64,000 bases of DNA from an uncultured virus (IMG/VR IMGVR_UViG_3300017963_004045) (IMGVR_UViG_3300017963_004045), one strand, 5' to 3'. Shown: positions 1 through 63,783, counted from the stretch's first letter. Notes: a model not told the origin generated them from the letters alone. Numbers and translations: made by a program.

Positions 1-49
1 TGCAACTGCGGAAGGCTGAGAAAGACAGGAAAAACTAACGGGTGTTGGC

Positions 50-814
50 ATGACCAAAATTGAATACTCCAAAACCCATCAAGGTAAGACACACATACTT
101 CACGCAACAGTAGAGAACAGACATGGGGCAAACGACATCAAGGAATACTATGAAGGCAGGGGCGATAGCGTTCTGATTGTCGAGTTCGGCAAGACATATG
201 CGGTCTACAGGTATTCAGTAATCGAGAAAATGAAAGACCTGATTGCTGAGACCATTGGGCACGATTGCGAAATCGTTCACATGGAAGGGCACTACCAAGA
301 CTATGTTGGAAGCAAAGCCTCAACGAGTTGGGGTTGGAAGCAACCGACAGAGTTCAATGGTTATCTGATTGCATTAGCCAGATATTCACCAAGCCACAAA
401 GGACAGAAGCCCGTTTGCCACTTCGACTTCATCGAAAAGTCAGAGGAAAGCAACGGGTGTTATTCGATAAAGCCCAAGATAAAGTTATCTGACATAGTAA
501 ATCTGGACGATTTAACAGAGCCTTTGAACATAGAACGCCCAGACGACAAGGGTAGAAGCGTAGAGGAAGGCTACTTAGGTCATGTTCGCTGTCGTGATTG
601 CGGGAGTCTTTGGCAACCCAATAAGGTCGTTGCTGACCACAACCTACCCAAGAAATACGAGCAGACAGAATACTGTCCGCAATGTAATGGAACTGAGATT
701 GTGGGTGCAACAGTCGAAGATGTGATGATTATCGCCATTGAAAACGGGATAAGTCTGATTGCCTATGGAGAGAAGTCCGTTCTGGGCTTCATGCCCAGAC
801 CGAAGGAGAACTGA
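50..814 (+). CDS. Hypothetical protein with C-terminal CxxC...CxxC zinc ribbon
   Basis: 254-aa ORF with ATG 4 nt after the repeat motif; CRDC and CPQC pairs. Confidence 0.75.
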   Translation: MTKIEYSKTHQGKTHILHATVENRHGANDIKEYYEGRGDSVLIVEFGKTYAVYRYSVIEKMKDLIAETIGHDCEIVHMEGHYQDYVGSKASTSWGWKQPTEFNGYLIALARYSPSHKGQKPVCHFDFIEKSEESNGCYSIKPKIKLSDIVNLDDLTEPLNIERPDDKGRSVEEGYLGHVRCRDCGSLWQPNKVVADHNLPKKYEQTEYCPQCNGTEIVGATVEDVMIIAIENGISLIAYGEKSVLGFMPRPKEN

Positions 815-836
815 GGAAATTACAACGGGTGTTATT

Positions 837-1118
837 ATGCCAAGAGAAATAGTTGAACGCTCATCTGGATATTGGATAGTCAACGAGCATGGGGTAGCAT
901 ACCCAGAGCCATTTGACAGTATTGAAGAGGCACTGGATAAACTTGAAAGTCTTGACAATTGCACACATGATTGGGACGCAGACATGGATGGCTTTGTATC
1001 GTGTCAGCAATGCGGAGAGCCACACCCAGACAATCTGCCAGAGGGACACACGCACTCTCTTCAAGATATACGCCCAGACCTTTTCAATCCAAATGGAACT
1101 CGCAAGGCAGATTACTAA
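837..1118 (+). CDS. Hypothetical protein
   Basis: ATG directly after the motif at 824; the stop TAA overlaps the next motif at 1117. Confidence 0.7.
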   Translation: MPREIVERSSGYWIVNEHGVAYPEPFDSIEEALDKLESLDNCTHDWDADMDGFVSCQQCGEPHPDNLPEGHTHSLQDIRPDLFNPNGTRKADY

Positions 1119-1131
1119 CGGGTGTTGAGCC

Positions 1132-1627: not shown

Positions 1628-1803
1628 GATGACAAAGCCATCGAACTCGGAGAAAAACAACGGGTGTTAATCATGGCTAAGTGCAAGGATTGTAATAGCA
1701 AGAATATCATAGTCAGGGGACGCACAATCTATTGTGGGGATTGCCTATCAAAACGCATATCTGGGGGCATACACAAATTCAAAGGTCAGAAGAACAGAGG
1801 AAC

Positions 1804-2251: not shown

Positions 2252-2926
2252 GTGAAACTTGGACATTCAGATGTCTATGACCATTTCCCGATACTCGCAG
2301 AAGCGGTGCAGGAGGCGAAGGCACTGTTCAGGAGAGGTGCTAAGAGTGTTGAGGTCGTTGGCTTCGACTCTGGGCAATCCTATTTCGTCATTGACGATGA
2401 TGGAGAGGAGTGGCAAATCGAGGGTAGAACATGGAAGGAACTAACACCTGTTGAACAGGAGAAGGTTCAAGACCACTGGACGCAATGCGTAATGGACGAC
2501 TCTATGGAGTGCAAGAAGAACTGCCCTACTGTAGAGAAGTTCTGGGAGAACCACGCTGAGCAAGACTATCCAGAATGGGCAAACTGGGGTGGCTCAGAGA
2601 AGCCCTACAAGATACCCATCATTGAGGTAATCTCAGGCATGGAGACGGAACTGGAACTTGAAGATGAAGAGGAAATCAAGAACTTCGAGACCGCAAAGGC
2701 GAAGGGCGTTGGCGACACCATCTATGTGAACGATTTGGGCGATTGCCAGATTGTGAGCATGGAGATAACCCCAGACAACATTGAGGAAATCAGGAAGGAG
2801 CATGGGGGAGACCTTTTCGTAGCCAATCTGGTGTGCGAAGAGGACGGAAGCATCCGTTGGTATTTGAACCCACAACGAAGCGACATCGGGTTGTTCACAC
2901 GGCTCGTCAAGGAAATCAAGGAATAA
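2252..2926 (+). CDS. Hypothetical acidic protein
   Basis: 224-aa ORF ending just before the motif at 2930; start uncertain. Confidence 0.65.
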   Translation: MKLGHSDVYDHFPILAEAVQEAKALFRRGAKSVEVVGFDSGQSYFVIDDDGEEWQIEGRTWKELTPVEQEKVQDHWTQCVMDDSMECKKNCPTVEKFWENHAEQDYPEWANWGGSEKPYKIPIIEVISGMETELELEDEEEIKNFETAKAKGVGDTIYVNDLGDCQIVSMEITPDNIEEIRKEHGGDLFVANLVCEEDGSIRWYLNPQRSDIGLFTRLVKEIKE

Positions 2927-3592
2927 ATCAACGGGTGTTGCAATGCGAGAGTCCATAGACCGCAAACTATCCACGCAATTGGATAAAGAAACATGGGATA
3001 TAGTCATATCCAGTGGCTCGTGCCCGAACTATATGAATGGCTACTGTTACATGGACGCAAGACGCAAATGCACTGAGGAATTCTGCCCGATAAAAAAGGA
3101 GTGATAAACATGGATATAACACATGAAAAACTACAGGAAATGACCAAAGGAATACTCTATGATGAGGATAGCCCCGAAATCGAAGGCTGTATCTACAAGA
3201 CCGAACAGGGCGAGTGGGTAACAATAGTCTTAACTATGGAAGGGCGATTACTCAGACTCAGGACGGGCTACTGTATGTTCTGCGGAGCATACATACATGG
3301 CAAGGACACCCACAAATGCGGTGAGTAAGGCGGTGGTCAGCATGGACGCAATGCAAAAACTCATTGAAGCAAGAGAGGAAATCCTCATAGCCAACTGGTT
3401 CACGAAAGACATTCTTGAGGACTTGCTCGGCTACAAACTCACCGATGGAGAGTTCAGGGAAATCCTCGAACACTGGCACAATTCAGGGGCATGGAATGAT
3501 GTCTCCGATACGGTCAGGGAGTGGGTGGCTCAGGAGTTCGAGAGGACGAAGGACGGACTCAAAGTCAGAGAAAACTAACGGGTGTTGATAGT

Positions 3593-4090
3593 ATGACACT
3601 GGTAAAGACAAAGGAATACAAATTCGGACTGATTGGCGAGTTCTTGGATGAGTTCAAACTCCATGATAAATTACTGAGCATTCTACAGGAGAATTACAAC
3701 GAGACATACGAATGGGGAGAGAGCAATGAGTATCTCATAGACAAGATGGGCAGGGAAGTCGATTTGGAAGAGATAGTCGCAATGATGGGCGGTATCTGTG
3801 ATGTCATAGAGGCTATGCTTGATGGCATACCCAACAGGAAATTCACGAGAGTATATCTGAAGGAGGATTTCAAACATCAGGTGGAAGCGGAAGATGTTTG
3901 CTTTACCGAGATACTCAGGGGAGAAAAGACCGAACTCCAACAGGTGTTAGAGAGCATTGACCTACTGGCAGAAATGCCAGAACCTCATGTAGTAGTGCTG
4001 AAAGAAGAGCCTTATGACATGGAGGTTATCCGCAAGGAGCATGGTCGCCAGACGGGTTGGATAATCACAGTCCTGAAAGGTAAAAACTAA
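3593..4090 (+). CDS. Hypothetical protein
   Basis: Bounded by motif copies at 3577 and 4089. Confidence 0.7.
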   Translation: MTLVKTKEYKFGLIGEFLDEFKLHDKLLSILQENYNETYEWGESNEYLIDKMGREVDLEEIVAMMGGICDVIEAMLDGIPNRKFTRVYLKEDFKHQVEAEDVCFTEILRGEKTELQQVLESIDLLAEMPEPHVVVLKEEPYDMEVIRKEHGRQTGWIITVLKGKN

Positions 4091-4470: not shown

Positions 4471-4502
4471 TCTAACACCCGTTGTTAGATGGAGGCGATA
4501 CT

Positions 4503-4895: not shown

Positions 4896-4927
4896 GGAAC
4901 TTTCCAACAGGTGTTGAGAGGGATAGC

Positions 4928-5506: not shown

Positions 5507-5673
5507 TCAACGGGTGTTGAACATGGTTAGCGAACTGGAAGAAGCCTACGAATACTATACCGATGATGACCTGTATTCAATCTACCATAATTGTTGTCCA
5601 GCAGAGAAACGCAGGATTACTATGGAATTAAACAGGCGTGAGAGAGTTAGACAGGAACAAAGGAATTGATAAT

Positions 5674-6093: not shown

Positions 6094-6239
6094 GGGGGTA
6101 TGTGCTTTGCCGAGAAGCAAGGGAATAATAACACTAATAAGAAAAGAAAGTAATAGGCACTCATCACGATTGCGATTCCCGACTCACTCATCGAGAATCT
6201 TGTCGTGGTCAAACAGGGAAAAAACTAACAGGTGTTGAG

Positions 6240-6653
6240 ATGAAAGATGAAGAAAGATACAGAGGAATTGAAGTAGAGTTGCCCACAGGTCAGAAGGCAC
6301 GAGTGCCAATAAGAGTCATACGCTGTTCAGAGTGCAATGATGTTATAGGGTTCTTGACTGCCGATGAAGGTTATGTGCCAGAGGGAAAAATCAAGAGGCT
6401 CTTGCAGACCGCAGTATGTCCAAAGGAAGCCTACCTCTATATAGAGGGCATGGTAAACCCCAATCGAGAGAACTTCAAAGCCCAGACATCAATGACATTG
6501 CTTCAAGCACTGGAAAAGATATTTGAAACCAACGATGTTGAGACAATTGAGGAACTGGAAGAGAAGATGGGCAGTGCTAACCCATTCTCTCAGGTAGCCC
6601 GTAAGATTACAGTGGCAATGGACTTGCTGGACAAGGTTGACGCAGTATCCTAA
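6240..6653 (+). CDS. Hypothetical protein
   Basis: Bounded by motif copies at 6227 and 6652. Confidence 0.7.
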   Translation: MKDEERYRGIEVELPTGQKARVPIRVIRCSECNDVIGFLTADEGYVPEGKIKRLLQTAVCPKEAYLYIEGMVNPNRENFKAQTSMTLLQALEKIFETNDVETIEELEEKMGSANPFSQVARKITVAMDLLDKVDAVS

Positions 6654-6678
6654 CGAGTGTTACAATCGGAGAAGAGAT

Positions 6679-7032: not shown

Positions 7033-7354
7033 TAAACTGAACAAAGCAGAGGAAAAACCAACAGAGCCAGAGGAACAGAAAGTCGTGGACAAAGAGTTCG
7101 ACTTTACAGAGGAAGGCGAAGAAGTTCAAGCCTTCTATGAGGACTTGAAGAAATACGCCAAGAAGCATGGACTGGTAATAACCAACATCAAGGGCTGGAC
7201 AAGAGGAAGGATTATCAGGATGGCGAGGAACGATAGGCGTTGTGCCTGTCGCCCCAAACAGAGAACCTGTCCATGTCCTGAAGGACTCGAAGAGTGCAGA
7301 ACCGCAAAAGACCACGAGTGTATCTGTTCGGTGTTCAGACTCGGAAATAAGTAA
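7001..7354 (+). CDS. Ferredoxin-thioredoxin reductase catalytic-subunit-like Fe-S protein
   Basis: Three CxC motifs (CAC, CPC, CIC followed by SVF) match the FTR CPC...CPC...CHC-x-LF pattern; start uncertain. Confidence 0.6.
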   Translation: MRNKMRNKESDKLNKAEEKPTEPEEQKVVDKEFDFTEEGEEVQAFYEDLKKYAKKHGLVITNIKGWTRGRIIRMARNDRRCACRPKQRTCPCPEGLEECRTAKDHECICSVFRLGNK

Positions 7355-7370
7355 CAGTTGTTGAAAGGGG

Positions 7371-7841: not shown

Positions 7842-7911
7842 TGATGCGTAAAGACTGGCTTGATTCCTCAAAGGCATAAAACTCGGTAAGTTCCAACGGG
7901 TGTTGAACAGA

Positions 7912-8235: not shown

Positions 8236-8746
8236 CATGGTAGCCAAGACAAACAAGGACAAGTGGGCACACAATCTTGACCGATTAGTAGCAGACAAAG
8301 AGAGCGAGTTCATATATGTTCCAGTCCAATACGGTAAACTATCTCACAGAGTTAGACGAGTGAAACTCGTAGATAAGTTGGTTATAATCAGGAACAATAA
8401 GCCAACGGTCTTTAAACTATACGAGATAGCCCAGAGGAATATAGGAGCAGGTAGAAAACTTGTTTGGTTTCACAGAGTCATCAAGAAGGATAGGCTTGGA
8501 CAGGTGTTAGAATTCGATATAATGGCAGACAATCCGAATGCTTGGAGAGGGCTAAAAGCCATCGAGAAGAAGCAGACTGAAGATGGTGTTATAGAAAAAT
8601 ACAAGCAGGAAATGGAAGCAGGAAAGGAATCCACACCATCCAGTCAAAGCACGAGAGAGAGGAGAGAAATCCGAGAATTCCTGAATCGAGTCGGTAGGAG
8701 GCGGGAGTCCGTCCCAGTGAAGCGTAAAGAAGTCGCCAAAAACTAA
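8228..8746 (+). CDS. Hypothetical protein
   Basis: 172-aa ORF; stop overlaps the motif variant at 8745. Confidence 0.65.
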   Translation: MGNMVAKTNKDKWAHNLDRLVADKESEFIYVPVQYGKLSHRVRRVKLVDKLVIIRNNKPTVFKLYEIAQRNIGAGRKLVWFHRVIKKDRLGQVLEFDIMADNPNAWRGLKAIEKKQTEDGVIEKYKQEMEAGKESTPSSQSTRERREIREFLNRVGRRRESVPVKRKEVAKN

Positions 8747-8766
8747 CAACCGTTGGAGATGATTAT

Positions 8767-9141
8767 ATGGGCAAAGAGAAGAAGCGTTTCATCGTAGATG
8801 TCGAAGCAAGACCATGTGGACTGGCAAAGATTACGCCAGATGAAATCCACGAAGCATTGAGAAATCGATACAATAGTAATGTTGGGCTAAAGGTCAAGGA
8901 GATAGAAGAAGCCCCCACAACATTCTTGGAGCATCCCGAAACGCACATGGAAGGCATCATCAGTTATGAGCAGTCAATAAGTCGTGGAAGCCGAGTGGGA
9001 GATTTAGGCATCCAGATTGCAAGAGACCACAGGGTTTGGTTGTGCGTAGATGGAGAAGCCATGATACGATTCAAGCCGAAGGTAGTCGGTGGGAAAACTC
9101 AGCAGAATATAACGCCTGTTAGATTCGACAGGAAGGAATAG
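8767..9141 (+). CDS. Hypothetical protein
   Basis: 124-aa ORF with GGAG RBS. Confidence 0.65.
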   Translation: MGKEKKRFIVDVEARPCGLAKITPDEIHEALRNRYNSNVGLKVKEIEEAPTTFLEHPETHMEGIISYEQSISRGSRVGDLGIQIARDHRVWLCVDGEAMIRFKPKVVGGKTQQNITPVRFDRKE

Positions 9142-9143: not shown

Positions 9144-9671
9144 ATGTCGTCAAATTCTGAGGTTAAAAAGTCGATGGAAATATCTATCGATACCGTTCTT
9201 GATTATCTTGAAGGGATGGTCAAGTTCAGGAAGGAAAACATAACCCAACCGCCCAAACTGAAGTATATCTGCACTGAGGACTTCGTTCTACAGAACGGGA
9301 GACCTTTCGAGTTCAGACCACTACCCAAACACATTGCTCCAATGGAAATGAAGGAGTGCTACAGGAACTCCTTCCAGACTCTTATAGACAACCATGATTT
9401 GACCTATTGTGAGGGCTTTGCGACATCGGGAATATTGCCTGTTCTCCACGCCTTCCTCGTTGATATGGAAGGCTATGTTGTAGACCCGACATGGACTGAC
9501 GGAATAGACTACTATGGAGTTCCATTCAAAAGAGAGTTCGTAATCTCCCAGACGATTAAGCAAGAGACCTATGGTCTTATCGATAATTGGTCAATGGGCT
9601 ATCCACTTCTCAGTGGGGAAATCAAGAAGGAGGAGTGGTTCGTCAAGGAACTGCAACTCAGAAATAACTAA
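9144..9671 (+). CDS. Putative papain/transglutaminase-fold protein (C-H-D triad)
   Basis: ECYRNS ... YCEGFA ... VLHAFLVD ... VVDPTW ... YYGVPF. Confidence 0.55.
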   Translation: MSSNSEVKKSMEISIDTVLDYLEGMVKFRKENITQPPKLKYICTEDFVLQNGRPFEFRPLPKHIAPMEMKECYRNSFQTLIDNHDLTYCEGFATSGILPVLHAFLVDMEGYVVDPTWTDGIDYYGVPFKREFVISQTIKQETYGLIDNWSMGYPLLSGEIKKEEWFVKELQLRNN

Positions 9672-9682
9672 CGGGTGTTGAT

Positions 9683-10093: not shown

Positions 10094-10329
10094 ATAGGAT
10101 GTTCAAATTCATAAAGAGATACAGGAGATACCAAGATGCAAAGATGGTCTGGAATAGGATGAAGGGGGCTTGTCGCCATTTCTCTAAAAAAGAAGGCATT
10201 CGATGTGGAAGGGGAAATGAAGGATTAACGGCAGAGGCAATTAAGATAGGTTGCAATCACTCGGACAACATTACTGGCAAGTGTGAGATACTACACTGCC
10301 CAATAATCAACACTCGTTGAGGAATCGAC

Positions 10330-10397: not shown

Positions 10398-11816
10398 ATG
10401 AAATCGAGCAATTGGTTTGAAGTAGACAAAGCAGGGTTTCAGGCTCTCCAATCTGGAAAGCCAAAATACCACGCTGTAAGGGAACTGATACAGAACGCTC
10501 TTGATGAAGATGTCAAGAGGATTATCGTAACTACGCATTACGACAGAGGCAATCTGGATGTGTGCGTTGAGGACGATGGAGGGGGCTTCAGGGACATTAA
10601 AGACGCATACACCCTGTTCGCTGATACCTATAAGCGTCCAGACGCTACGAAGAGAGGCAGGTTCAATCTTGGTGAGAAACAGGCATTCGCCATATGCAAG
10701 AGTGCCGAAATAAAAACCACATCTGGCACAATCGTCTTTGACGAGAACGGAAGGCACAGGAAAAGGGAAAAGACAGAGAAAGGAACAGTCGTTCAAATCT
10801 TTATGACGAAGGTTACAAGAGAGGAGTATGAGGAAATCTTGGATTTCTTCAAGTTGCTGATTGTCCCACCATCCATTGATTTGGTTATTAACGAAGAGTC
10901 AGCAGTCCAAAGAACGCCCACCCACACCTTCCAAACAAAACTCCAGACAGAATATCTCAAAGACGGGGAGTTCAAGCCCACGAAGAGAATAACGGATGTT
11001 GAACTATTCGATGCAAGAGGTAGAAAAGCCTACCTCTATGAAATGGGCATTCCAGTCTGCGAGATAGATTGCAAATACCATATCAATGTCCAGCAGAGAG
11101 TCCCAATGAGTATGGACAGGGATAAGGTGTCAGAGTCATACCTTCAAGATATTTTCGCAGAGGTATTGAACAACACCTTTGAAGAACTTAACCCAGAGGA
11201 GAGTTCAGAGACTTGGGTAAGAATGGCTACAAGCGATGACAGAATATCAAAAGACGCTATCAAGACGGTTGTTGAGAAGCGTTATGGGGACAAGGTAGTT
11301 GTCGCTACGCCATCAGATAGGCTGAGTGTCGATGACGCAAAGGCACACGGCTTCAATATCCTTCATGGCTCAATGCTCAGTGCTGATGAATGGGAGCAGA
11401 TGAGAAAGCACGATGCAATACAATCATCCCACGATATGTTCGGCAAGACACTGGCTACCGAGACAGATTACATAACCCCGAATCAAGAAATGAAGAGAGT
11501 TGGGCAATTGGCGAAGAAGATTGCCAGACACATCTTCGGCATAGAGATAAGCGTGGTGTTCGTAGACAGCAATGCCAGTCATAGAGCCTACTATGGTGGC
11601 AGACAACTAATATTCAATGTCAGACGGTTGACCCATGACTTCTTCCAACATCCGTTGGATGAAGATGTTCTGGAAATCATAATTCACGAACTGGGGCATG
11701 AGAAAGGTATGCACACAGAGATAGCATACCACCAAGCACTCTGCCAGATAGGGTCAGCACTGATAATGGAAGAGGTCAGGAGAACAGGATTCCTCGATGA
11801 ATTCAAAAACATTTAA
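10398..11816 (+). CDS. GHKL (HATPase_c) ATPase with C-terminal HExxH motif
   Basis: N box RELIQNALD, G1 box VEDDGGGF, G2 box RGRFNLGEK, G3 box KGTVVQI; C-terminal IIIHELGHE. Confidence 0.85.
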   Translation: MKSSNWFEVDKAGFQALQSGKPKYHAVRELIQNALDEDVKRIIVTTHYDRGNLDVCVEDDGGGFRDIKDAYTLFADTYKRPDATKRGRFNLGEKQAFAICKSAEIKTTSGTIVFDENGRHRKREKTEKGTVVQIFMTKVTREEYEEILDFFKLLIVPPSIDLVINEESAVQRTPTHTFQTKLQTEYLKDGEFKPTKRITDVELFDARGRKAYLYEMGIPVCEIDCKYHINVQQRVPMSMDRDKVSESYLQDIFAEVLNNTFEELNPEESSETWVRMATSDDRISKDAIKTVVEKRYGDKVVVATPSDRLSVDDAKAHGFNILHGSMLSADEWEQMRKHDAIQSSHDMFGKTLATETDYITPNQEMKRVGQLAKKIARHIFGIEISVVFVDSNASHRAYYGGRQLIFNVRRLTHDFFQHPLDEDVLEIIIHELGHEKGMHTEIAYHQALCQIGSALIMEEVRRTGFLDEFKNI

Positions 11817-11850: not shown

Positions 11851-12648
11851 ATGGCAAAGAAAGAGCAGAAAGTAGAAGTCCCAGACGAAGATGAAATCGA
11901 TGAAGAGGTTCTCGACAAAATGCAGTCTTTAGAATGTCCGAAATGCAAGACTCAACTTGAGGTTGTTATCGAAGAGCCAGACAGGGAGATAAACTCAGAT
12001 GAGGACTTTGTTAGCGAAGCCATTGATTTGGGAACGAGGGCTATGGTGGGTGGTCTAACGGATGTTACTTCAGTCATAGTCATCTACAAAGCAGATGATG
12101 GCATAAGAGCCATACCGATAATGCCCAAGCAATTCGTAAGGGAGACAATCGAAACTATGATGGACTTACTGAGGCACATCCAGAGGCATGGATTACCCAC
12201 AGGGCACGAGAGCATGATGATGAGGGAAATGCCCCGCTATTCACAGTCCGAAATGGACAAGGCGAAGTTCCATGCCGATGTAATCTTCAAAGGTTATATC
12301 AGCAAACTCAATGAGGAACTGGGCATAGAAGAAGTTGTCAGGCAAAGCGTAGAAAGAGAGCCATCAAGAACGGACTATCTGGAACTCGCAGTAAAGCAAA
12401 CAATGGTCAATGTCAGATACTTCGATGAACTCAAACTGGACGGTCAGATTAACGCTGTCCGAGAGAACATCATGTCAGTCCACGAGAAATACAAATGTGA
12501 GTGTGGGCAATGCAATAAGCCACCCACAGACTTCAATCACGATGAAATCAAGGACATGATAAGGACGGTGCAGAGGAAACGGCAGAAGGTAAAGTCGGAA
12601 GAATCCAACACCCGTCATTATGATGAGAGCCTGAGTTACTTCGGTTAA
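11851..12648 (+). CDS. Hypothetical protein with CxxC motifs
   Basis: GGGGTG RBS; CPKC and CECGQC. Confidence 0.7.
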   Translation: MAKKEQKVEVPDEDEIDEEVLDKMQSLECPKCKTQLEVVIEEPDREINSDEDFVSEAIDLGTRAMVGGLTDVTSVIVIYKADDGIRAIPIMPKQFVRETIETMMDLLRHIQRHGLPTGHESMMMREMPRYSQSEMDKAKFHADVIFKGYISKLNEELGIEEVVRQSVEREPSRTDYLELAVKQTMVNVRYFDELKLDGQINAVRENIMSVHEKYKCECGQCNKPPTDFNHDEIKDMIRTVQRKRQKVKSEESNTRHYDESLSYFG

Positions 12649-15214: not shown

Positions 15215-15245
15215 AAACAACGACTGTTAAAAGGAGGAGATAAAC

Positions 15246-40383: not shown

Positions 40384-40407
40384 CACCCGTTGAAACGGGG
40401 GGATTAT

Positions 40408-42828: not shown

Positions 42829-42846
42829 GATTTAACGGGTGTTGAT

Positions 42847-52540: not shown

Positions 52541-52954
52541 CACACTCGCACAATTATGGCAGAAAGAAGAAGTAAGCCAAGAGACAGGAAAACTGTCGAT
52601 ACACACAGAAGGGGAGGAGTTACATGGAAAGGTAGTAGAGGAGAAGATATTCTGATGCTCTGCTTCATCACCTTTGTAATGTTATTCGGATACTATGGTT
52701 TTTACATATCAGGAATGAAGCACCCGATATGTGCTGTTCCCTTCATAATTCTAACAATACTATTTGCCTATATTATGATTAAAAGAATCCGAGCATATTG
52801 AAAAAATCTCGACAGGTCAAAATTATCAACGCTAATAGGCTTGTTTTAAGCCCTATGCTACGCAAAGGACTCGCAGGTGTAGAGAGTAGGGTAGAGGAGA
52901 AAGGCTCTTAAAACGGCTTAAAACGGCTTCTTTTGTAATCTAATCTAACACCCG

Positions 52955-53572
52955 TTAGTTTTCGACAAAGCACAGGTCGTCCCCGATACCGCACTTCCTA
53001 CGGGTGAGTAAACCGCCAAAGAACACGCCAACAAGCATGAATGCAAAGGGAACTCCGAAATCCCAAGCATAATAATTGGTCGTGAGAGTCAATATGCCTT
53101 CAAGGACGACATCTCCTATGAACGCAAGAACCCCTATGGATATGGGGATAGATGGTCTCTCGCTGATTGCAAGACCATAGAGGGCTAAGAAGGTCAGAGA
53201 TATTCCAAGAGGAAATGCGTGGAGAACACCGAATATGAGAGTAATCACGCCCAAGATTGGGAGAAGCCTGACCATGAATGTAAACCTCTGGCTTTCATCA
53301 TATTGCTTGAAAAGTGCAATGACCATCACTCCTGCGAGAAGCAGACCCGTCCCATAAGCCAATAGAATCTCAATTGGAATCTCAAGGACGAAGAACAAAT
53401 CTGTTTCATGATATTGCCAACGATGATTTGCTACACCCCAGTATTCAACTAAGAATCCAGCAATGATACCGATTATGAAGAGCATAGTGAGATTCTTGCT
53501 GTGCTCCCGATAAAAGTAATAAGAAATAGCCAGAGCCACCAAACAAAGTATGAATAGCCCTGCCAACATCAT
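52955..53572 (-). CDS. Multi-TM membrane protein (lycopene-cyclase/CruF-like E..G...W.Y...IPIE pattern)
   Basis: GFLVEYWGVANHRWQY...EIPIEILLAY; 6-7 TMs; stop overlaps the motif at 52947. Confidence 0.55.
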   Translation of the reverse strand: MMLAGLFILCLVALAISYYFYREHSKNLTMLFIIGIIAGFLVEYWGVANHRWQYHETDLFFVLEIPIEILLAYGTGLLLAGVMVIALFKQYDESQRFTFMVRLLPILGVITLIFGVLHAFPLGISLTFLALYGLAISERPSIPISIGVLAFIGDVVLEGILTLTTNYYAWDFGVPFAFMLVGVFFGGLLTRRKCGIGDDLCFVEN

Positions 53573-55686: not shown

Positions 55687-56049
55687 TCATCCCCTCTTAG
55701 GCAAATCAAAAGACCTTCTGCAACGACCAGTTGCTGAGACCTTGAAATCACCCTCTTCAGTCATAGAGACACTGACCTTCCCAAAGTCGCACTCATAGGG
55801 ATTTCCATATCTTGTATATATGACCTTTTTCTTGTGCTCCAGTTGTTTCTTAGCCTTTCTCCTAAGAGAACTCTTGGTTGTTCCACGAGGCGTATCAACA
55901 ATAACACTCGTTGGATATTCGTATTCCCTATATTCCTCAAGGACAACATGTTTGACATCAGATTTCTTTACAATACCTCCAGCGACATCATCCCCAACAC
56001 GAATCTCAAAACCTTTTTTATATCTGGATGGCAAAGGCATAATAATCAC
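55687..56049 (-). CDS. Hypothetical basic protein
   Basis: Tiled ORF. Confidence 0.6.
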   Translation of the reverse strand: MIIMPLPSRYKKGFEIRVGDDVAGGIVKKSDVKHVVLEEYREYEYPTSVIVDTPRGTTKSSLRRKAKKQLEHKKKVIYTRYGNPYECDFGKVSVSMTEEGDFKVSATGRCRRSFDLPKRG

Positions 56050-56501: not shown

Positions 56502-56513
56502 ATTCAACACCCG

Positions 56514-56906
56514 TTAATCTTCCTCCACGAGCATATAGTCCTCTTCATGGAATTCTTCCTGCTCGGTCTCAGGGCTTCCCGATACGGGTCTGAACTCTGG
56601 CATATTGGAATGGAAGCCTGTGCTCCTGTCGGTGCATAGAATAAGGAAAAGATACTCACCATACTGGTCTGAGCCTTCCTCAAAGGAGTTTTGCAGTTGT
56701 TCTCTCAATTGCTCAATCTTTTTATCAGATAATTTGAACTTCTCCTTGAGTTCACGAAGCGGTCTATCTGGGTCGAAGTAAACCCCCTCTTTCATCATAT
56801 TATTGAATAGTTCAATAGCCTCATCCCTGTTCATAGCACCATAGTAATTGAAGCATTCATCGGTGATGTCTATGCTCTCAGTGAATTTCTTCTTATCCTT
56901 TGCCAT
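56514..56906 (-). CDS. Hypothetical acidic protein
   Basis: Stop overlaps the motif at 56506. Confidence 0.65.
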   Translation of the reverse strand: MAKDKKKFTESIDITDECFNYYGAMNRDEAIELFNNMMKEGVYFDPDRPLRELKEKFKLSDKKIEQLREQLQNSFEEGSDQYGEYLFLILCTDRSTGFHSNMPEFRPVSGSPETEQEEFHEEDYMLVEED

Positions 56907-57547: not shown

Positions 57548-57965
57548 CAGAAACCCCCAGATGTTCCCTGATTATCTTCTCAAGGCGGTCAACCCGTTCT
57601 ACATCCCTGATACCAGAGAAATATATCTCGTCAGCATAACCACTTCCACACTCAATAGTTATAAATTCCTCATCTTCTGGGAACGCCTCATTGAAACCCC
57701 ACTGTCTGAGGTATTCCATGCCGTTTGGATGCTCTCCATTTGCATCTATGAACTTATCCCTAACCTTCAGAACACAATGGGCAGGGAGGCTCTCTCCAGC
57801 ATATCCTTCGTTTTCATAAGAGCAACAGATGTTCCCACCCAACACTCGTTGAAGTGCCTCTGCGAAATTACCACAATCTCCAGCGTGACCATAGAATCCA
57901 TGTGATTCCATATCTATACGAATATCGTTCATCTTCTGAATAACGGAATCTGGCTCAATCTTCAC
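57540..57965 (-). CDS. Putative papain/transglutaminase-fold protein
   Basis: GDCGNFAEAL ... AHCVL ... FIDANG; GTG start after GGAGGT. Confidence 0.55.
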   Translation of the reverse strand: MKIEPDSVIQKMNDIRIDMESHGFYGHAGDCGNFAEALQRVLGGNICCSYENEGYAGESLPAHCVLKVRDKFIDANGEHPNGMEYLRQWGFNEAFPEDEEFITIECGSGYADEIYFSGIRDVERVDRLEKIIREHLGVSDG

Positions 57966-58860: not shown

Positions 58861-59147
58861 TTTTCACCTCTGAATATGAACTCGAACCCTGCGGTCTGTA
58901 TAAAGCAGACCTCCTCATTGCCTATCCTACTACTGTAGAAAGCATGGTCTGGGTCATCAGCGACAAAATCTTCCAATGTCTCATCATCTTCCAGCAACGA
59001 ACTGGTATCTGCACACATCTCGAATTCAACGAGTGTTATTCTCTCTTTGTTGTCCATCATCTCTTTCCAGAAATGCTCTCCTTCCTCGCCTTCTGACCTT
59101 AATCTAAAACAATCCTTGTAGAATCTTTTAGTTGGACAAGCCTTCAA
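58857..59147 (-). CDS. Hypothetical phage-type protein (C-terminal AGFEFIF)
   Basis: Tiled ORF. Confidence 0.6.
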   Translation of the reverse strand: MKACPTKRFYKDCFRLRSEGEEGEHFWKEMMDNKERITLVEFEMCADTSSLLEDDETLEDFVADDPDHAFYSSRIGNEEVCFIQTAGFEFIFRGEK

Positions 59148-60637
59148 AGGTCTCTCCTCCCGATTCTCTTATCAGGTGAGCACCTCTGTTCTCCAAGAAG
59201 CCCAACCATTAACTTATCAGACTCGCCATCTGGACAAGCATGTGGGAAAACACACGAGACGGCATTCTTATGTAGGTCATCAGAGACACAAACCTCCGTC
59301 ATAATCTCCAATTCTTCTCTTGCCTTACGAGTTTTTATGATTTTCTTCTTCCAATCTGGCTCACCCTTATAGGGTGCGATTCTACCACTCATCCACCTTT
59401 CAGCGTCATCACCTTCAAAATCATCGGGAACGCCATGAATGTATCCAAGCGATTGTCCGCTAATCTTCATCTTTGCCTCTGGGCTTAGGTCATCCCAACT
59501 ACCCACTCTATCAAGTTCTTTCTTCACTGGCAACCATTCTCTACATCTCTTGAAGTAATGCATACCAACGGTGGGAACATCATAAACAGCGTGACCATAG
59601 TTATCAGCCATTTCATCATATGGATTAAGAGGACTCTCATTAGATGGTATGTCTCTGTGGCAAAGATGAACACTGAAAACCTCAGCATCTGGGAATGCTC
59701 TCCTAACATTATGATAGGCACTATTAATCTGCATACCCGAAGCAACTATATCATCTACAATGACCACTCTCTTAACAGCATCAGACTTGTCTCCAAGCCA
59801 GTTAGCACCTCTGGGTCTAAACAATCTATCTCTCATCTCAGGCGGGAGGTCATTGTATGCCCAAGTGCTGTATTTTTTATCAAAGCCAGAATATTTGAGA
59901 ACCTCTAATCTGCCCCCCTCACCAATTATTTCCCACTCATCCCAAGCCATAGCAATATCGCTTGGAATATTGTGTTTAGGAATCTGATTGGCATATGAGA
60001 ATATACTGAGGGTTTCATGCCCCCCTCGTGGAGTAGTAACATATATAGTTCCACCATCCTCCAGTATCATCCTCAAGAATGTATCATCAAAAGGAACAGT
60101 CTCGGAATATTCTCTATGTTTCTGAGTATCAACAAATATCTCTGTGTTGGGGTGTCTCTTTACCAATCTCATCTTCTCCTCAATAGGCATGGTCTCCCAG
60201 ATTCTCTCGCCCAATTCATACCCAAGCAACTTCATTGCATTGTATTCCTCATCTCTATCATACATCACAATACTTTGAAGATAATCCTCAACAATATCCT
60301 GAGTAGGCTCATTATCTTCGACTTTTTCAATCTCCAATTCTAACTTCCCCCTAAGATAGTTCTGGGTTCTCTTCGGTAGGCGACTCCAACTTCTTTTGAA
60401 CATTTCCTCATCTTCAATGTTCACCTCAAGCGACTTAGCCCAAGCCTTCCTTGTCTTGGGGCTTAGAGAATTCCAAGTATCTGGCATACGGTTTAAAGGG
60501 ATGGGAAACTGCTTAACAAAATCATCAATCTCTTCGCAAGTGACCCCTTTAAGGTTAGGATACTGTGGACAAAGCGGAATCCAACGCCTGTTGGTTTCGG
60601 CTTCCTTGCCTATTATCTCCCAGTCCTTCTTGCCCAT
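59144..60637 (-). CDS. Type I phosphoribosyltransferase-domain protein (PRTase-CE-like)
   Basis: PRPP-binding loop VVIVDDIVASGMQI; C-terminal VFPHACPD. Confidence 0.7.
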   Translation of the reverse strand: MGKKDWEIIGKEAETNRRWIPLCPQYPNLKGVTCEEIDDFVKQFPIPLNRMPDTWNSLSPKTRKAWAKSLEVNIEDEEMFKRSWSRLPKRTQNYLRGKLELEIEKVEDNEPTQDIVEDYLQSIVMYDRDEEYNAMKLLGYELGERIWETMPIEEKMRLVKRHPNTEIFVDTQKHREYSETVPFDDTFLRMILEDGGTIYVTTPRGGHETLSIFSYANQIPKHNIPSDIAMAWDEWEIIGEGGRLEVLKYSGFDKKYSTWAYNDLPPEMRDRLFRPRGANWLGDKSDAVKRVVIVDDIVASGMQINSAYHNVRRAFPDAEVFSVHLCHRDIPSNESPLNPYDEMADNYGHAVYDVPTVGMHYFKRCREWLPVKKELDRVGSWDDLSPEAKMKISGQSLGYIHGVPDDFEGDDAERWMSGRIAPYKGEPDWKKKIIKTRKAREELEIMTEVCVSDDLHKNAVSCVFPHACPDGESDKLMVGLLGEQRCSPDKRIGRRDL

Positions 60638-60643
60638 AGCACC

Positions 60644-61315
60644 TCACAACCATTCCTCTGGAATCGCCCTCTCCCTGACATACTGGCTTTCCAGTTGCTT
60701 GAAAGCCCAATCCTTGATTTGCTCTCTCTTATCTACACCTGCTTTTTGTCCAGCCTCATAACTGAATCTGAATAGTGGCAATTCCTTCATGAGAAATCTG
60801 TGGTCATTTAGGAATTCAGGGTCAGCGTTCTCGATTACCAGTTCATTCGCATCAAGCGTTGCCAATCCTGTTTCTATGGCTCTTGTCCATAAGTCTCTGC
60901 ACCACCAACTTTCAGAGCCATTAGACCAGAAACAGTATGCTTCTGTGCCCTTCACAGGGACTTCCCGCTTACCATAATAATTTCTCTCTGCCACTTCATC
61001 ATTGAACCTCGATAATGTTGCTCTTTGCTCAGGGCTTAATGCATTGACAACATCCACCATCTTATTATCTATGACCGTCTCGACTCTGTTCTTACCGCCC
61101 TCAACATCAACTGCCGAGTGCATGACTGAACGAATATAAGACTGTTTCTTAATCTGCTTTCTGTCCCCCTCTTCCATAGCCTCGACCATCTCTCTGAATA
61201 ATTGTCCCTTATTGCCAATGACCTCTCTATCGACCTCTACAGCCATTTCGTAGGCTCTATCAATGCCGAACAGTTCCATCTCACTGGCAAGTCTGTAAGC
61301 CTCTCTATCACTCAT
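60644..61315 (-). CDS. Hypothetical protein
   Basis: Start reassigned to MSDREA after the GGAGG RBS. Confidence 0.65.
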   Translation of the reverse strand: MSDREAYRLASEMELFGIDRAYEMAVEVDREVIGNKGQLFREMVEAMEEGDRKQIKKQSYIRSVMHSAVDVEGGKNRVETVIDNKMVDVVNALSPEQRATLSRFNDEVAERNYYGKREVPVKGTEAYCFWSNGSESWWCRDLWTRAIETGLATLDANELVIENADPEFLNDHRFLMKELPLFRFSYEAGQKAGVDKREQIKDWAFKQLESQYVRERAIPEEWL

Positions 61316-62546
61316 AGAATTCCTCCCTGTAAATATAATAGATGCATGATAGCATAACACCCGTTGATATGCATATCATAGAGACATACATCCAGAACAG
61401 GTCATACTCCACGACACTCTCTATATCTGGAATTATCGCCTCTGCTGTGGAGTTAAGATAAACAACATAGATATTATAATCATCAGGGCTATAAGTATCA
61501 TATCCATCAAATGCAACCAGATAATCTCCATTTTCATAACCGAACATATCAAAGTGAATGCCCTTGTAAGCAAGTTCATCAACTAAGGTGAAGTATTCTC
61601 CAGTTGAAAAGTCATACACCTCAGCATACCACAAACCCTGAGAATCATTCCAAGCGGAATATACAACAAGGTCATCGTAAAATCCACCCCAATAAGAATA
61701 CTGGTAATCTGAGTCACTCCCCTCTGAGATATTAAACCATTCTTCAGTTGTTATGTTGTATGACCAAATATGGGGGGTATTTAGAGTAACTTCAAGCGTG
61801 GCTACTATGGTGTCTCCCCAAATGTCGCCTATGCCATCACACCCAACGCAAGGAGAACCCCAGATACAGATTGGCACACCATCATTCAAATCAACATATG
61901 TTAAATTAGAATAACCATCTATAGAAGAATTATAGAATATAACATAATCCCCAAAGACATTCGCATAGCCACAGCGTTGCCAACTATCATTAGTGATATT
62001 GTTGTAAGTTTCAGAAACAATATCATAGACCATCAAGGTAGTTGCATTATAACCCTGAACAACGGTGTCCTCCCATATGCAAGGGGGATAACCATGACAG
62101 CCCGATAGCAAAGTAGTTGTATTGGTCGAAATCTTATGCAAGTATAATGCAGAATTGCGAACATTCATGACCATGTAATCCCCATAAATGTCAGAATAAG
62201 CAATGGGATAAGTCCCACTATTGTCGAAATCAATTCTCCTGAACTCTTCACCAGAATCCAAATCATAGATGACGAAATCGTATTCATAATAATCGAAATA
62301 ACACATGTTGTCATCATATATCGCTGGAAGATAGGTATAGTTGTAATCAGTAATGCGAATCGGGTCTGACATTTCAAAAAGTCCATCATCGACAGTCACA
62401 CTGGACTCAGTATCCAATACAATGGTGCTCTCCCGAATACCATAACCGCCAAAGTAGATGAACGCTGGAATAATGAAGCATATTACTATCCCAAACAAAA
62501 TCTCTTCCTTGTAGTTCCTAACATCATATTTTCGACTCATAGCCAA
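61308..62546 (-). CDS. Membrane-anchored beta-propeller surface protein (methanogen-type IxGDxVV repeats)
   Basis: Repeats DIYGDYMV, CIWEDTVV, NVFGDYVI, DIWGDTIV, GFYDDLVV; N- and C-terminal TMs; many NxS/T sequons. Confidence 0.75.
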   Translation of the reverse strand: MAMSRKYDVRNYKEEILFGIVICFIIPAFIYFGGYGIRESTIVLDTESSVTVDDGLFEMSDPIRITDYNYTYLPAIYDDNMCYFDYYEYDFVIYDLDSGEEFRRIDFDNSGTYPIAYSDIYGDYMVMNVRNSALYLHKISTNTTTLLSGCHGYPPCIWEDTVVQGYNATTLMVYDIVSETYNNITNDSWQRCGYANVFGDYVIFYNSSIDGYSNLTYVDLNDGVPICIWGSPCVGCDGIGDIWGDTIVATLEVTLNTPHIWSYNITTEEWFNISEGSDSDYQYSYWGGFYDDLVVYSAWNDSQGLWYAEVYDFSTGEYFTLVDELAYKGIHFDMFGYENGDYLVAFDGYDTYSPDDYNIYVVYLNSTAEAIIPDIESVVEYDLFWMYVSMICISTGVMLSCIYYIYREEFYE

Positions 62547-63274
62547 TCACCTTCATCATCCATTTCTCCTTGTTCAATCCACCAATCCTTGAATTCCTCA
62601 TCTCCGACTTTGCAACCAAAGTCCTCTGCAATCTCTAATGTTGTCTTATCCTCGAAATTCCACCAAGAATCACTCTGAACCTTATCAAAGTTTATCTTGG
62701 GTTCTCTTTCATCTATGACATGATGTAGATTTCTCAATACTGACAAATCGTGTTTGATTTGTGATTTCAACTCTTTCCTATCCTTCGGTATTGGCGACAT
62801 CCAATCCCTGTTATATTCCTTAATTTGATTGACAATATGTAGAAAATCATCATATACAATGATGTGGGTATCTTCCCAACCAATGAACACATTCTTTATT
62901 CCTTTTGCACGACCCTCAACTACAATCTGCTCACCCTCATCATCGTCCTCCTCAGAGTAATAGGAATAGTTGAAATTACTGGCATTTAAAAGCCACTCTT
63001 CGAGAACTTCCTTTGCATGTTTCTCAAGGGCACTAATATAGGCGTTCTCCTGCATATTGCATATGGAGTTATGAACCTCACTCATTTCACATCCAGAAAT
63101 CTTATTGTCCGCTATCAACCTCTTCTTCTCAGAGTCCTCAACATAACATAGGTCGAACTTCATAGCCCACTCCCAGATATTAGTCCAAGAAGCATCATCT
63201 GGCAAAATCTTAAGGTCGCTCATAAGGTCATCTGTTTTAGCAACAATCCTGAATGTTCTGCTCAAGCCCACCAC
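62537..63274 (-). CDS. Hypothetical acidic protein
   Basis: 245-aa ORF; start uncertain. Confidence 0.65.
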   Translation of the reverse strand: MVGLSRTFRIVAKTDDLMSDLKILPDDASWTNIWEWAMKFDLCYVEDSEKKRLIADNKISGCEMSEVHNSICNMQENAYISALEKHAKEVLEEWLLNASNFNYSYYSEEDDDEGEQIVVEGRAKGIKNVFIGWEDTHIIVYDDFLHIVNQIKEYNRDWMSPIPKDRKELKSQIKHDLSVLRNLHHVIDEREPKINFDKVQSDSWWNFEDKTTLEIAEDFGCKVGDEEFKDWWIEQGEMDDEGDWL

Positions 63275-63783
63275 CCCATCATTATCGCCAAATATATCGG
63301 AACGATTCCAACAATCGTTGAAATTGAAATCGCTAAGATGACATTATATCTGGTATCGCCATAATCTTGTTTCATCAGATAATTTGAAGCCTTTAGCATA
63401 ATCTCAAAGGCTATGAAGCCATAGATGAACCATAGAATCGTATCCAAATCTGGATACCACATATAGTAATATCTGAGAACATAGAATGAGAACTGAGTAG
63501 TAAACAAAGCCAGAACACCAATTATAATCCTCTCTCTGGTAGTATCCGCAACGCTGTAGATATAATACCAATGGTCTGTTACTACACCAAATCCAACCAA
63601 AGCCATAAGAATCAAGACATTGACGACCTGAAGTCCGACAAGTGCATTGATATAACCACTTGGAAGGTAAACGCCCACCCTATTGAAGAACAACAAAATT
63701 ATGAAGGCTACCACTGGTAGAAAATAAAAGGGCGTTGGTTTTATCTGTTGAACAGATACTATATCGAAGTCATCTTCTGTCAT
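63262..63783 (-). CDS. Multi-TM membrane protein
   Basis: About 5 hydrophobic segments; start reassigned to MTEDD after GAGG. Confidence 0.65.
   Translation of the reverse strand: MTEDDFDIVSVQQIKPTPFYFLPVVAFIILLFFNRVGVYLPSGYINALVGLQVVNVLILMALVGFGVVTDHWYYIYSVADTTRERIIIGVLALFTTQFSFYVLRYYYMWYPDLDTILWFIYGFIAFEIMLKASNYLMKQDYGDTRYNVILAISISTIVGIVPIYLAIMMGWWA

Follow-up and report, generated by a model that had tools for sequence, protein, structure and literature searches.

What kind of signal is a short word that returns about once per kilobase along a mobile genome, often where one gene ends and the next begins? This question is raised by IMGVR_UViG_3300017963_004045, an uncultured virus of the IMG/VR database, of which we analysed a stretch of 64,000 nucleotides (the window; positions are counted from its first letter). 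A note written from the sequence alone, hereafter the original prediction, had described the word as a quasi-palindromic site, YAAC-RNNY-GTTR, and proposed that it binds a dimeric protein. Our analyses lead us to favour, with moderate confidence, a dispersed site that a dimeric protein would bind in a sequence-specific manner and that would have been co-opted as a Shine-Dalgarno sequence. The sites and other features are listed in Table 1.

The exact 10-mer AACGGGTGTT occurs 32 times in the window (22 forward and 10 reverse copies), against 0.03 expected from dinucleotide-preserving shuffles, and this count was reached in none of 100 shuffles. Our recount agrees with the copies and coordinates first reported. 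Relative to transcription, 26 of the 32 copies are co-oriented and six are reversed (4474, 23866, 33880, 36059, 37512 and 40382). The arms are also kept around other centres, as had been claimed. AAC-N4-GTT is found 85 times between positions 37 and 63319, where 16-17 occurrences are expected, with the centres GGGT (22), ACCC (10), ACTC (7), AGGT (5), GGAT (4), GAGT (3) and others. Among inverted trinucleotide pairs at spacings of 0-10, it is the top outlier (z 17), followed by AAC-N8-GTT (z 5.8; 39 copies in the whole window), which is raised because many junctions read AACTAAC. The true unit is a degenerate 12-bp palindrome, YAACR-NN-YGTTR, to which 66 of the 85 sites conform, about one per kb, in keeping with the consensus originally proposed. 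Its commonest form is TAACGGGTGTTG, and the mirror-breaking YAACY-NN-RGTTR has no copy in the window. By position, 42 of the 85 sites have a start codon within 25 nt, 34 are interior to genes, five lie at gene ends with no start codon within 25 nt and four are placed otherwise; 36 of the 66 symmetric sites are at junctions with a start within 25 nt. The original prediction had also suggested a check on the regularity of spacing. The coefficient of variation of the spacing of the 85 sites is 0.68 versus 0.98 for random placement, and none of 5,000 random placements was as low. Site density is similar in arms with junction spacers and in operons of overlapping genes that have no spacers.

Copies inside genes were compared with 1,000 shuffles of synonymous codons within each gene, for sites at least 21 nt from gene ends. 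Four exact forward copies were observed versus a shuffle mean of 0.13, and four exact reverse copies versus 0.24. The purine-centred family has 12 interior members (mean 0.82), the pyrimidine-centred family 10 (mean 0.83) and AAC-N4-GTT as a whole 39 (mean 10.7). No shuffle reached the observed count in any of these classes; the original prediction had named a codon-preserving shuffle of intragenic and reverse copies as the test that could overturn it, and the idea survives. When the spacing between the arms was scanned in gene interiors, N4 alone was strongly enriched (z 9.4), the same-phase spacings N1 and N7 were not, and the everted GTT-Nk-AAC was flat relative to shuffles. In genes of at least 100 aa and at least 45 nt from their ends, the symmetric 12-mer occurs 21 times versus a mean of 1.83 (1,000 shuffles, maximum 6). 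Five asymmetric or flank-swapped controls are at expectation (0, 1, 0, 2 and 6 observed versus 0.44, 0.80, 0.75, 1.04 and 4.05). At the level of sequence, the claim that the site is not just a ribosome-binding site thus holds. The whole window has 24 symmetric 12-mer copies inside genes.

The consensus of the 34 interior sites has Y at position -1 (27/34), R at position 3 (31/34), Y at position 6 (30/34) and R at position +10 (29/34). Most of these sites occupy one codon phase, xYA-ACR-NNY-GTT-Rxx, which reads Thr-x-Val, and they use the minor codons CTA/TTA for Leu and CGG/CGA for Arg. The copies originally cited as intragenic do lie within genes, two of them (21827 and 61356) within 50 nt of a stop codon.

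At junctions the same letters also appear to serve translation. Gene counts are based on 135 predicted open reading frames (ORFs; 19,287 aa), of which 34 have a site within 32 nt of their start, with three more (4503, 23993 and 40408) after start correction; the letters of the site would double as the ribosome-binding site for about a quarter of the genes. Among the purine-centred junction sites, 23 of 27 lie 0-7 nt before the start without another Shine-Dalgarno sequence, which places GGGTG or AGGTG 5-9 nt from the start codon. GGGTG therefore probably serves as a Shine-Dalgarno sequence, as had been suspected. The upstream stop codon is 1-20 nt before the site, and about 16 sites supply it themselves through the TAA of TAAC. 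The stop-plus-start geometry described for 1117, 3577, 9670, 18169 and 25626 was recovered, with the TAA overlapping TAAC and a start 3-6 nt later. Its mirror image on the minus arm was found at 56506, where the layout is the same; at 52947 the stop overlaps the site and no start follows.

These observations could suggest a purely translational signal acting at the mRNA level, similar to the start-associated sequences (SAS) of Cluster K mycobacteriophages, with all other copies as by-products. The module would stop the upstream ribosome, offer GGGUG and perhaps bind an RNA-binding factor. The proximity of sites to starts, the overlapped TAA codons and the predominant orientation of the exact copies are all consistent with such a signal. 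So is the likeness to the SAS layout as described in PMC3203893 (3-7 bp before starts, symmetric outer bases around a Shine-Dalgarno core, stop sometimes inside the motif). Nevertheless, we consider it unlikely. The reverse and deep intragenic copies amount to 10-30 times the expectation from synonymous shuffles, and their consensus is symmetric. A Shine-Dalgarno sequence would be selected on the sense strand only, and the interior copies occur in both orientations. At junction sites 12-19 nt from the start, or with a flipped centre (4474, 8745, 15804 and 40382), a dedicated GGAGG, GGAG or GGGGGG comes after the site. Five gene-end sites (26307, 27853, 29687, 47518 and 52947) have no start within 25 nt, and two others (49984 and 50117) lie at the ends of converging arms, with T-runs after both. 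Signs of RNA pairing were not seen either: C..A mismatches of the flanks number 12 versus 10.3 expected, and folding is 0.9 kcal/mol better than that of shuffles.

Two RNA structures were considered and rejected. One is a mini-hairpin of the arms, given that the flanks are independent, that the mean minimum free energy is -6.0 versus -5.2 for shuffles and that AAC and GTT are paired in 21 of 66 minimum-energy folds. The other is a hairpin of an upstream box (ACTCRG) with the site centre; the same boxes accompany every type of centre, so there is no compensation, and the fold energies are weak.

The remaining 101 of 135 genes have no site. They are preceded instead by GGAGG-type runs, often within the end of the upstream gene, which indicates that the host reads canonical Shine-Dalgarno sequences and that the site is not the ribosome-binding site of this genome. 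The GGGTG, AGGTG and AGGAG centres are similar to the GGAGG(TG) runs found ahead of other genes, and would pair with a 16S rRNA 3' end that reads ...CACCUCC. The centre of the site can probably stand in for a Shine-Dalgarno sequence. There are two separable signals, a symmetric DNA word present everywhere and a purine centre at junctions that gives a Shine-Dalgarno sequence.

The conserved module at junctions extends beyond 10 nt. A weak box, ACNYRG, is located at positions -14 to -9 of the site, at a fixed 8 nt upstream, and is followed by a C-free, A-rich octamer that usually contains TAA or TAG, and then by Y-AAC-NNNN-GTT-R. Such a module of about 28 nt, made of multi-frame stops, the site and a Shine-Dalgarno sequence, might be a portable cassette linker, i.e. 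a crossover point at which related elements exchange small accessory genes, either through homology or with a site-specific recombinase. The fixed distance of the box and the stops in several frames of the octamer are in line with this possibility, and so are the positions of the modules around small ORFan genes on one strand and of the tyrosine recombinase gene, which starts right after a site. The 24 symmetric interior sites are left unexplained, the core sites of known tyrosine recombinases have far longer arms, and no repeat longer than 16 nt recurs in the window. We rate a linker as slightly less probable still than a translational signal. The AAC and GTT triplets also bring to mind the attC sites of integrons, in which such triplets stand at the cassette ends and paired R and L boxes form part of an imperfectly palindromic sequence about 57-141 nt long. 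Here, in contrast, the triplets are 4 nt apart and no longer inverted repeat surrounds the sites.

In archaeal promoters, an AT-rich TATA box precedes the transcript start by about 24-30 nt, and a purine-rich B recognition element (BRE) lies further upstream. The site could be a promoter or initiator element before each gene, which would give leaderless or short-leader transcripts, but we find this very improbable. No conserved AT-rich block is present at the required distance, with information of at most 0.35 bit at positions -24 to -13. With the A-rich octamer as TATA box, transcripts would begin within the coding sequence. Interior sites, as promoters, would fire within genes. In two regions scanned, sigma-70-like promoters and intrinsic (hairpin) terminators are no more frequent than in shuffles. 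On the other side, site 49984 is just downstream of TATA-like boxes, and archaeal viruses can have a conserved regulatory sequence before many small genes (PMC11065993).

The DNA of the element bears the marks of another, extreme selection on short palindromes. Nine of the 16 four-base palindromes are absent from the window (ACGT, AGCT, CCGG, CGCG, CTAG, GATC, GCGC, GGCC and GTAC), with 148-231 copies of each expected from base composition. CCNGG, CGNCG, GCNGC, GGNCC, CCNNGG, CGNNCG, GCNNGC and GGNNCC are also absent (148 expected each), and the N3-spaced forms have normal counts. Of the 64 six-base palindromes 43 are lacking; the four-base ones that are retained are CATG, TCGA, TGCA and those made of A and T only. 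As a consequence of this purge, five dipeptides are missing from the 135 predicted proteins, namely Ala-Ala (35 expected), Pro-Gly (44), Gly-Pro (44), and Trp-Pro and Pro-Trp (12.6 each). To our knowledge, the purge goes far beyond any avoidance of restriction sites; a paper on haloviruses (PMC7230728) reportedly mentions absent GATC and CTAG. The absence of AACGTT follows from that of ACGT, which it contains. AAC-N6-GTT is depleted, with three copies in the window and, in gene interiors, two versus 9.1 in shuffles. Against this purge, the enrichment of a single palindrome stands out all the more.

Might the palindrome then be read by an enzyme or a structural system, as a methylation motif, a nicking or packaging mark, or a mark that distinguishes self from host? 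Its copies are evenly spaced and, inside genes, tied to no particular frame or orientation, and the extreme selection on short palindromes shows that DNA-reading enzymes clearly shape the element. However, the Pfam and PHROGs scans detected no methyltransferase, nuclease or terminase family in the window, and a modification motif needs neither enrichment nor a preference for junctions. Restriction targets are normally avoided, whereas this site is enriched at least five-fold in a DNA devoid of nine four-base palindromes. We therefore regard such a system as unlikely, on a par with a purely translational signal.

The reading that we favour is a set of sites for a dimeric DNA-binding protein. 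The site is under selection as double-stranded DNA. A reader encoded by the element would land on YAACR-NN-YGTTR; the symmetric word is kept regardless of strand, frame and start codon, which is what a dimeric DNA-binding protein would read. In the leading role, the sites would form a genome-wide set of operators or roadblocks that keeps many small genes silent or timed; genome organisation or self-marking would be alternative roles. In so compact a genome, a site would cost least in the gap of 11-16 nt from one stop to the following start. There, the free 4-bp centre would be set to GGGT, AGGT or GGAG and thereby give GGGUG or AGGUG in the mRNA 5-9 nt upstream of the start codon. Sites with an oppositely directed centre would be provided with a GGAGG of their own, and in overlapping genes without a spacer the site would be written into codons, mostly as Thr-x-Val. 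We attach a low probability to a private address system, in which an element-encoded dimer would recognise the palindrome to tell its own DNA from that of the host, for selective packaging, shielding, compaction or sparing from its own nucleases.

Several points weigh against the reading that we favour. The commonest form of the site is an imperfect palindrome, with AACG on one side and AACA on the other, and AACG-NN-CGTT does not occur in the window. The flanks at -1 and +10 vary independently (T/G 25, C/G 19, C/A 12 and T/A 10 of 66), so the symmetry exists at the purine/pyrimidine level only. With half-sites of 5 bp on either side of 2 central bp, the half-site centres are separated by only 7 bp, a small distance for a classical helix-turn-helix dimer. 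The junction copies have about 15 semi-conserved upstream bases that are absent from the interior copies; a plain operator does not explain them, and they are in line with a contribution from translation or from a cassette linker. Codon-pair context is lost in synonymous shuffles, but the spacing and symmetry controls speak against a codon-pair artefact. Lastly, the family scans of the 135 ORFs gave only marginal, sub-threshold Pfam matches to DNA-binding domains, and no binder was identified. Among the winged-helix or ribbon-helix-helix binders originally proposed, the protein encoded at 27933-28178 does have marginal winged-helix matches, and those at 26697, 32138 and 45267 match no family. 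As to the original interpretation overall, the DNA-level signal and its doubling as a Shine-Dalgarno sequence were upheld by sequence statistics and geometry, which were observed directly; the binding of a protein, its dimeric nature, and the role and effect of binding are what we infer from them.

Among described systems, SAS offer the closest layout. In PMC3203893, they are described as 13-mers (consensus GGGATAGGAGCCC) typically located 3-7 bp before the starts of non-structural genes, with symmetric outer bases GGG-N7-CCC around a Shine-Dalgarno core. The stop is sometimes inside the repeat, the orientation is mostly the same, host genomes lack the repeat and its function is unproven, according to the same paper. 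The window's site shares the distance to starts, the Shine-Dalgarno core, symmetric outer bases (AAC-N4-GTT), the upstream stop sometimes in the repeat, the predominant orientation and the lack of density in host-type genomes. It differs in that SAS, as presented there, belong to actinophages and are essentially restricted to gene starts, while here the arms surround any centre, the host is archaeal, and there are 24 symmetric intragenic copies in both orientations as well as gene-end sites without a start.

The closest proposed function is that of the stoperators of Cluster A mycobacteriophages (L5 gp71 type). According to PMC9283540, more than 20 short dispersed sites, many of them in short intergenic spaces, allow one repressor to block both initiation and elongation and thus to silence the genome. 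The element similarly has tens of dispersed sites (66, with 36 at junctions). However, the same source describes stoperators as asymmetric 13-mers bound by a monomer and working in one orientation only, whereas the site here is a palindrome at the purine/pyrimidine level, with interior orientations of 12 versus 10. No family of stoperator-type immunity repressors was found in the Pfam and PHROGs scans of the 135 ORFs, the window being part of the element.

On the archaeal side, the box of the HSR1/Phr heat-shock repressor of Archaeoglobus, CTAAC-N5-GTTAG, is bound by a winged-helix repressor near the start of the transcription unit, and has the same arms, (C)TAAC ... GTTA(G), as the palindrome studied here (as cited in PMC2396416). 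Its spacer is N5 rather than N4, and AAC-N5-GTT is not enriched in the window (13 seen versus 16 expected). HSR1 boxes are few per genome and located downstream of BRE/TATA elements. Here the sites number about one per kb, and placement downstream of a TATA-like box is seen at 49984 only. According to PMC11065993, early or anti-defence genes of archaeal viruses have virus-specific upstream regulatory sequences for which Aca8 is a proposed repressor; these motifs of 30-75 nt surround a strong BRE/TATA promoter and are thought to hold a repressor site. The parallel is that many small ORFan genes of one virus share a virus-specific conserved upstream sequence. In the element, by contrast, there is no recognisable TATA box, the site is 3-7 nt from the start within operons, and it is also intragenic. 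Since some but not all of the defining features of each of these systems are present, we file the site as one of a dispersed-operator kind and a member of none of them.

We next consider where else the motif occurs. In 10 archaeal genomes of 1.2-3.2 Mb, AACGGGTGTT has 0-8 copies each, versus 32 in 64 kb here. The 12-mer matched 22 of 401 sampled genomes, with at most two copies in any, which is the control level. In IMG/VR, a 15-mer gave 29 loci with a single copy each, as expected by chance, and no dense motif. A two-site pattern retrieved 92 stretches of metagenome contigs, none of which has dispersed copies like those of the window; the six many-copy loci that we inspected are all tandem repeats, and comparison of the metagenome stretches with the window proteins gave one weak match only. 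Based on these searches, the site appears to be private to the element. The tandem arrays (contigs L040, L042, L048, L072 and L096) are made of 16-23-nt units such as TTATAAACGGGTGTTG, which mix AACGGGTGTT, AACGAGTGTT and AACGGATGTT, the centre variants that the window has too. These contigs are unrelated, and no similarity to the window was detected at the protein level.

Searches with two large window proteins in IMG/VR, and with the 546-aa protein among 5.8 billion proteins, gave no match. The one family of the window showing relatives is that of the 389-aa protein encoded at 40408-41577, which has an N-terminal zinc-ribbon-like stretch and no Pfam domain. It has 119 relatives at E <=0.001, of which 41 reach E <=1e-10; some W, C, G and H columns are invariant. 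One relative is 98% identical to the window protein, and 25 others are 29-45% identical. No member was found in IMG/VR. In sampled genomes, it was present in 2 of 301 from the phylum of a Thermoplasmatales-titled genome, in 0 of 301 from each of two other archaeal phyla and in 1 of 26 in a further sample (a genome already counted). Two genomic loci of this family were examined as related elements and rejected; they have only that protein in common with the window, and neither the motif nor the palindrome purge. An exact copy of the 389-aa protein, a cluster member of the same length, is located on a 126.8-kb contig. This match makes the window part of an element only, whose length is probably at least 126.8 kb.

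As to the element itself, the window has a G+C content of about 44% and a purine-rich coding strand, with genes on the plus strand up to about 50 kb and on the minus strand beyond. Nearly all 135 ORFs are orphans in the Pfam and PHROGs scans, with the exceptions of a tyrosine recombinase, a GHKL ATPase, a DUF5131/radical-SAM-like protein, an ATP-grasp protein, a NADAR domain and a lipocalin. Marginal matches to families of the zinc-ribbon, C2H2 and winged-helix types are numerous; ORFs 12715-12873 and 36746-37234, examples of the C2H2 and zinc-ribbon types, are further candidate readers of the site. No capsid, portal or terminase family was seen in these scans. The segment 39567-39591, in the non-coding gap 39409-39694, is an exact copy of the last 25 nt of the archaeal initiator tRNA-Met. 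This pattern matches 31 genome records, 30 of which have archaeal titles, and ARAGORN called tRNA-Met (anticodon CAT) in 10 of 12 matched loci. Because the matches are spread over many archaeal phyla, they fix the domain of the host and not its lineage. The segment is likely to be the attachment core, about 8 kb from the tyrosine recombinase gene. Together, the initiator-tRNA fragment and the recombinase mark the element, by its sequence, as a temperate archaeal virus or plasmid. The nearest Atlas structures of its beta-propeller protein are mainly within archaeal clusters. An Rfam scan of the window found no family and ARAGORN no tRNA. Public sequencing runs that contain DNA of the element are labelled as sediment and seawater metagenomes, and no RNA run is listed among them. 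They hold near-identical copies only, so there is no variation to analyse.

A few local features deserve mention. In the convergence zone of the two arms (49950-50130), a near-perfect inverted pair of sites, AACACCCGAA (49962) and AACGGGTGTT (49984), has an 8-bp stem of -11 kcal/mol; there are also two TATA-like boxes, T-runs past both terminal sites and a G+C-rich hairpin at about 50030-50065. This stretch may act as a terminator or encode a small RNA. Directly upstream of the 385-aa gene 26697-27854, (T)GTCGCA is present four times within about 65 nt (26625-26690), and this cluster looks like a separate local operator. At 52905-52930, just downstream of the gene-end site 52947, CTTAAAACGG is directly repeated twice (GCCGTTTTAAG on the minus strand). 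Lastly, the GHKL-type ATPase (472 aa) and the overlapping 283-aa ORF without a family that comes after it (10398-12648) could form a two-part ATPase system, of a defence or topoisomerase-like type.

Table 1. Sites and other features of the window. Exact sites are copies of AACGGGTGTT; variants keep AAC-N4-GTT; start codons are given with their distance downstream of the site.
Feature	Position	Strand	Context
Site span, 85 AAC-N4-GTT including 66 YAACR-NN-YGTTR	37..63319		about 1 per kb
Exact site	37..46	+	junction; ATG, 3 nt
Exact site	452..461	+	interior of ORF 50-814; full upstream module
Exact site	824..833	+	junction; ATG, 3 nt
Exact site	1117..1126	+	junction; upstream TAA overlapping; ATG, 5 nt
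Exact site	1659..1668	+	ATG, 4 nt, of 46-codon ORF
Exact site	2930..2939	+	junction; ATG, 3 nt
Exact site	3577..3586	+	junction; TAA overlapping; ATG, 6 nt
Exact site, reversed centre	4474..4483	-	junction; separate GGAGG; ATG, 19 nt
Exact site	5509..5518	+	junction; ATG, 4 nt
Exact site	7895..7904	+	junction; ATG, 7 nt
Exact site	9670..9679	+	junction; TAA overlapping; TTG, 3 nt
Exact site	13787..13796	+	junction; ATG, 3 nt
Exact site	17177..17186	+	junction; ATG, 3 nt
Exact site	19520..19529	+	junction; ATG, 5 nt
Exact site	21827..21836	+	in ORF 21640-21885, 49 nt before stop; other-frame ORF ends 8 nt upstream
Exact site, reversed	23866..23875	-	interior
Exact site	25626..25635	+	junction; TAA overlapping; ATG, 3 nt
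Exact site	30126..30135	+	directly 5' of GTG 30136
Exact site	30881..30890	+	4 nt upstream of ATG 30895, tyrosine recombinase gene
Exact site, reversed	33880..33889	-	interior
Exact site, reversed	36059..36068	-	interior; flank G, hence outside 12-mer pattern
Exact site, reversed	37512..37521	-	interior; flank C at +10, hence outside 12-mer pattern
Exact site, reversed centre	40382..40391	-	junction; TAA overlapping; GGGGGG; ATG, 16 nt
Exact site	42834..42843	+	junction; TTG, 3 nt
Exact site	44585..44594	+	junction; TAA overlapping; TTG, 3 nt
Exact site	47518..47527	+	gene end; no start within 25 nt
Exact site	48257..48266	+	GTG, 4 nt
Exact site	49984..49993	+	non-coding convergence zone; downstream of TATA-like boxes, upstream of T5 run
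Exact site	50117..50126	-	co-oriented with minus arm, past its last ORF; T-rich run next
Exact site	52947..52956	-	stop TAA of 52955-53572 overlapping; no start following
Exact site	56506..56515	-	minus-arm junction; TAA overlapping; ATG, 4 nt
Exact site	61356..61365	-	in ORF 61308-62546, 48 nt before stop; about 40 nt before next start
Variant AACACCTGTT	2443..2452		interior
Variant AACAGGTGTT	3939..3948		interior
Variant AACAGGTGTT	4906..4915		junction; start, 12 nt, with own GAGAGGG
Variant AACAGGTGTT	6227..6236		junction; ATG, 3 nt
Variant AACGAGTGTT	6652..6661		TAA overlapping; start, 17 nt
Variant AACAGTTGTT	7353..7362		TAA overlapping; GTG, 8 nt (GGGG)
Variant AACAACCGTT	8745..8754		TAA overlapping; GGAG; ATG, 12 nt
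Variant AACGCCTGTT	9111..9120		near gene end; start, 23 nt
Variant AACACTCGTT	10309..10318		end of ORF 10099-10320
Variant AACGGATGTT	10991..11000		interior, GHKL ATPase gene
Variant AACATCCGTT	11647..11656		interior, GHKL ATPase gene
Variant AACGGATGTT	12057..12066		interior
Variant AACGAGTGTT	13384..13393		junction; GAAGGAG; ATG, 15 nt
Variant AACAGATGTT	14819..14828		near gene end; start, 23 nt
Variant AACGACTGTT	15219..15228		junction; AGGAGG; ATG, 17 nt
Variant AACACTCGTT	15804..15813		junction; GGAGGTG; TTG, 12 nt
Variant AACGAATGTT	16078..16087		start, 18 nt
Variant AACAGGTGTT	18169..18178		TAA overlapping; ATG, 3 nt
Variant AACACTCGTT	20428..20437		interior
Variant AACGGATGTT	21053..21062		interior
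Variant AACAGGTGTT	22492..22501		TTG, 3 nt
Variant AACAGGCGTT	23979..23988		ATG, 4 nt, of 546-aa gene
Variant AACACTCGTT	27853..27862		stop TAA of 26697-27854 overlapping; no start within 25 nt
Variant AACGGCTGTT	32215..32224		interior
Variant AACATTCGTT	32888..32897		interior
Variant AACATATGTT	35267..35276		interior
Variant AACGGATGTT	37084..37093		interior
Variant AACAATCGTT	39057..39066		interior
Variant AACGGCTGTT	41605..41614		start codon, 3 nt
Variant AACGAGTGTT, read on - strand	55903..55912		interior
Variant AACGAGTGTT, read on - strand	57841..57850		interior
Variant AACACTCGTT, read on - strand	59028..59037		interior
Variant AACAGGCGTT, read on - strand	60583..60592		interior
Variant AACATATGTT	61893..61902		interior
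Variant AACATGTGTT	62300..62309		interior
Variant AACGATTGTT, read on - strand	63310..63319		interior
Candidate reader, 140 aa	21221..21643	+	marginal winged-helix match HTH_45 (E 2e-3), below cut-off
Candidate reader, 81 aa	27933..28178	+	marginal winged-helix matches HTH_11 (E 4e-4) and HTH_24 (E 5e-3), below Pfam cut-offs
Tyrosine recombinase (integrase) of the element	30895..31554	+	Phage_integrase (E 2e-11); phrog_216 (E 3e-20)
Archaeal initiator tRNA-Met 3'-end copy, 25 nt, attP-like core	39567..39591	+	exact pattern matches

Dispersed sites that resemble operators have been described in a few groups of actinophages, as have conserved upstream sequences in some viruses of Crenarchaeota. 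A palindrome that tiles an archaeal element, is forced into codons and doubles as a Shine-Dalgarno sequence is undescribed in the literature that we searched; in a full-text search of one library for AACGGGTGTT and its complement, the matches listed were primers only. The site gives access to the gene control of a large archaeal mobile element whose genes are nearly all ORFans, and a short oligonucleotide carrying it could fish out the element's master DNA-binding protein. It also shows the extent to which DNA-level signals override codon choice and, with the palindrome purge, makes the element a good case for the sculpting of genomes by host defences. If the private address system were true, it would amount to a novel type of self-marking among archaeal viruses or plasmids, beyond a set of repressor operators.

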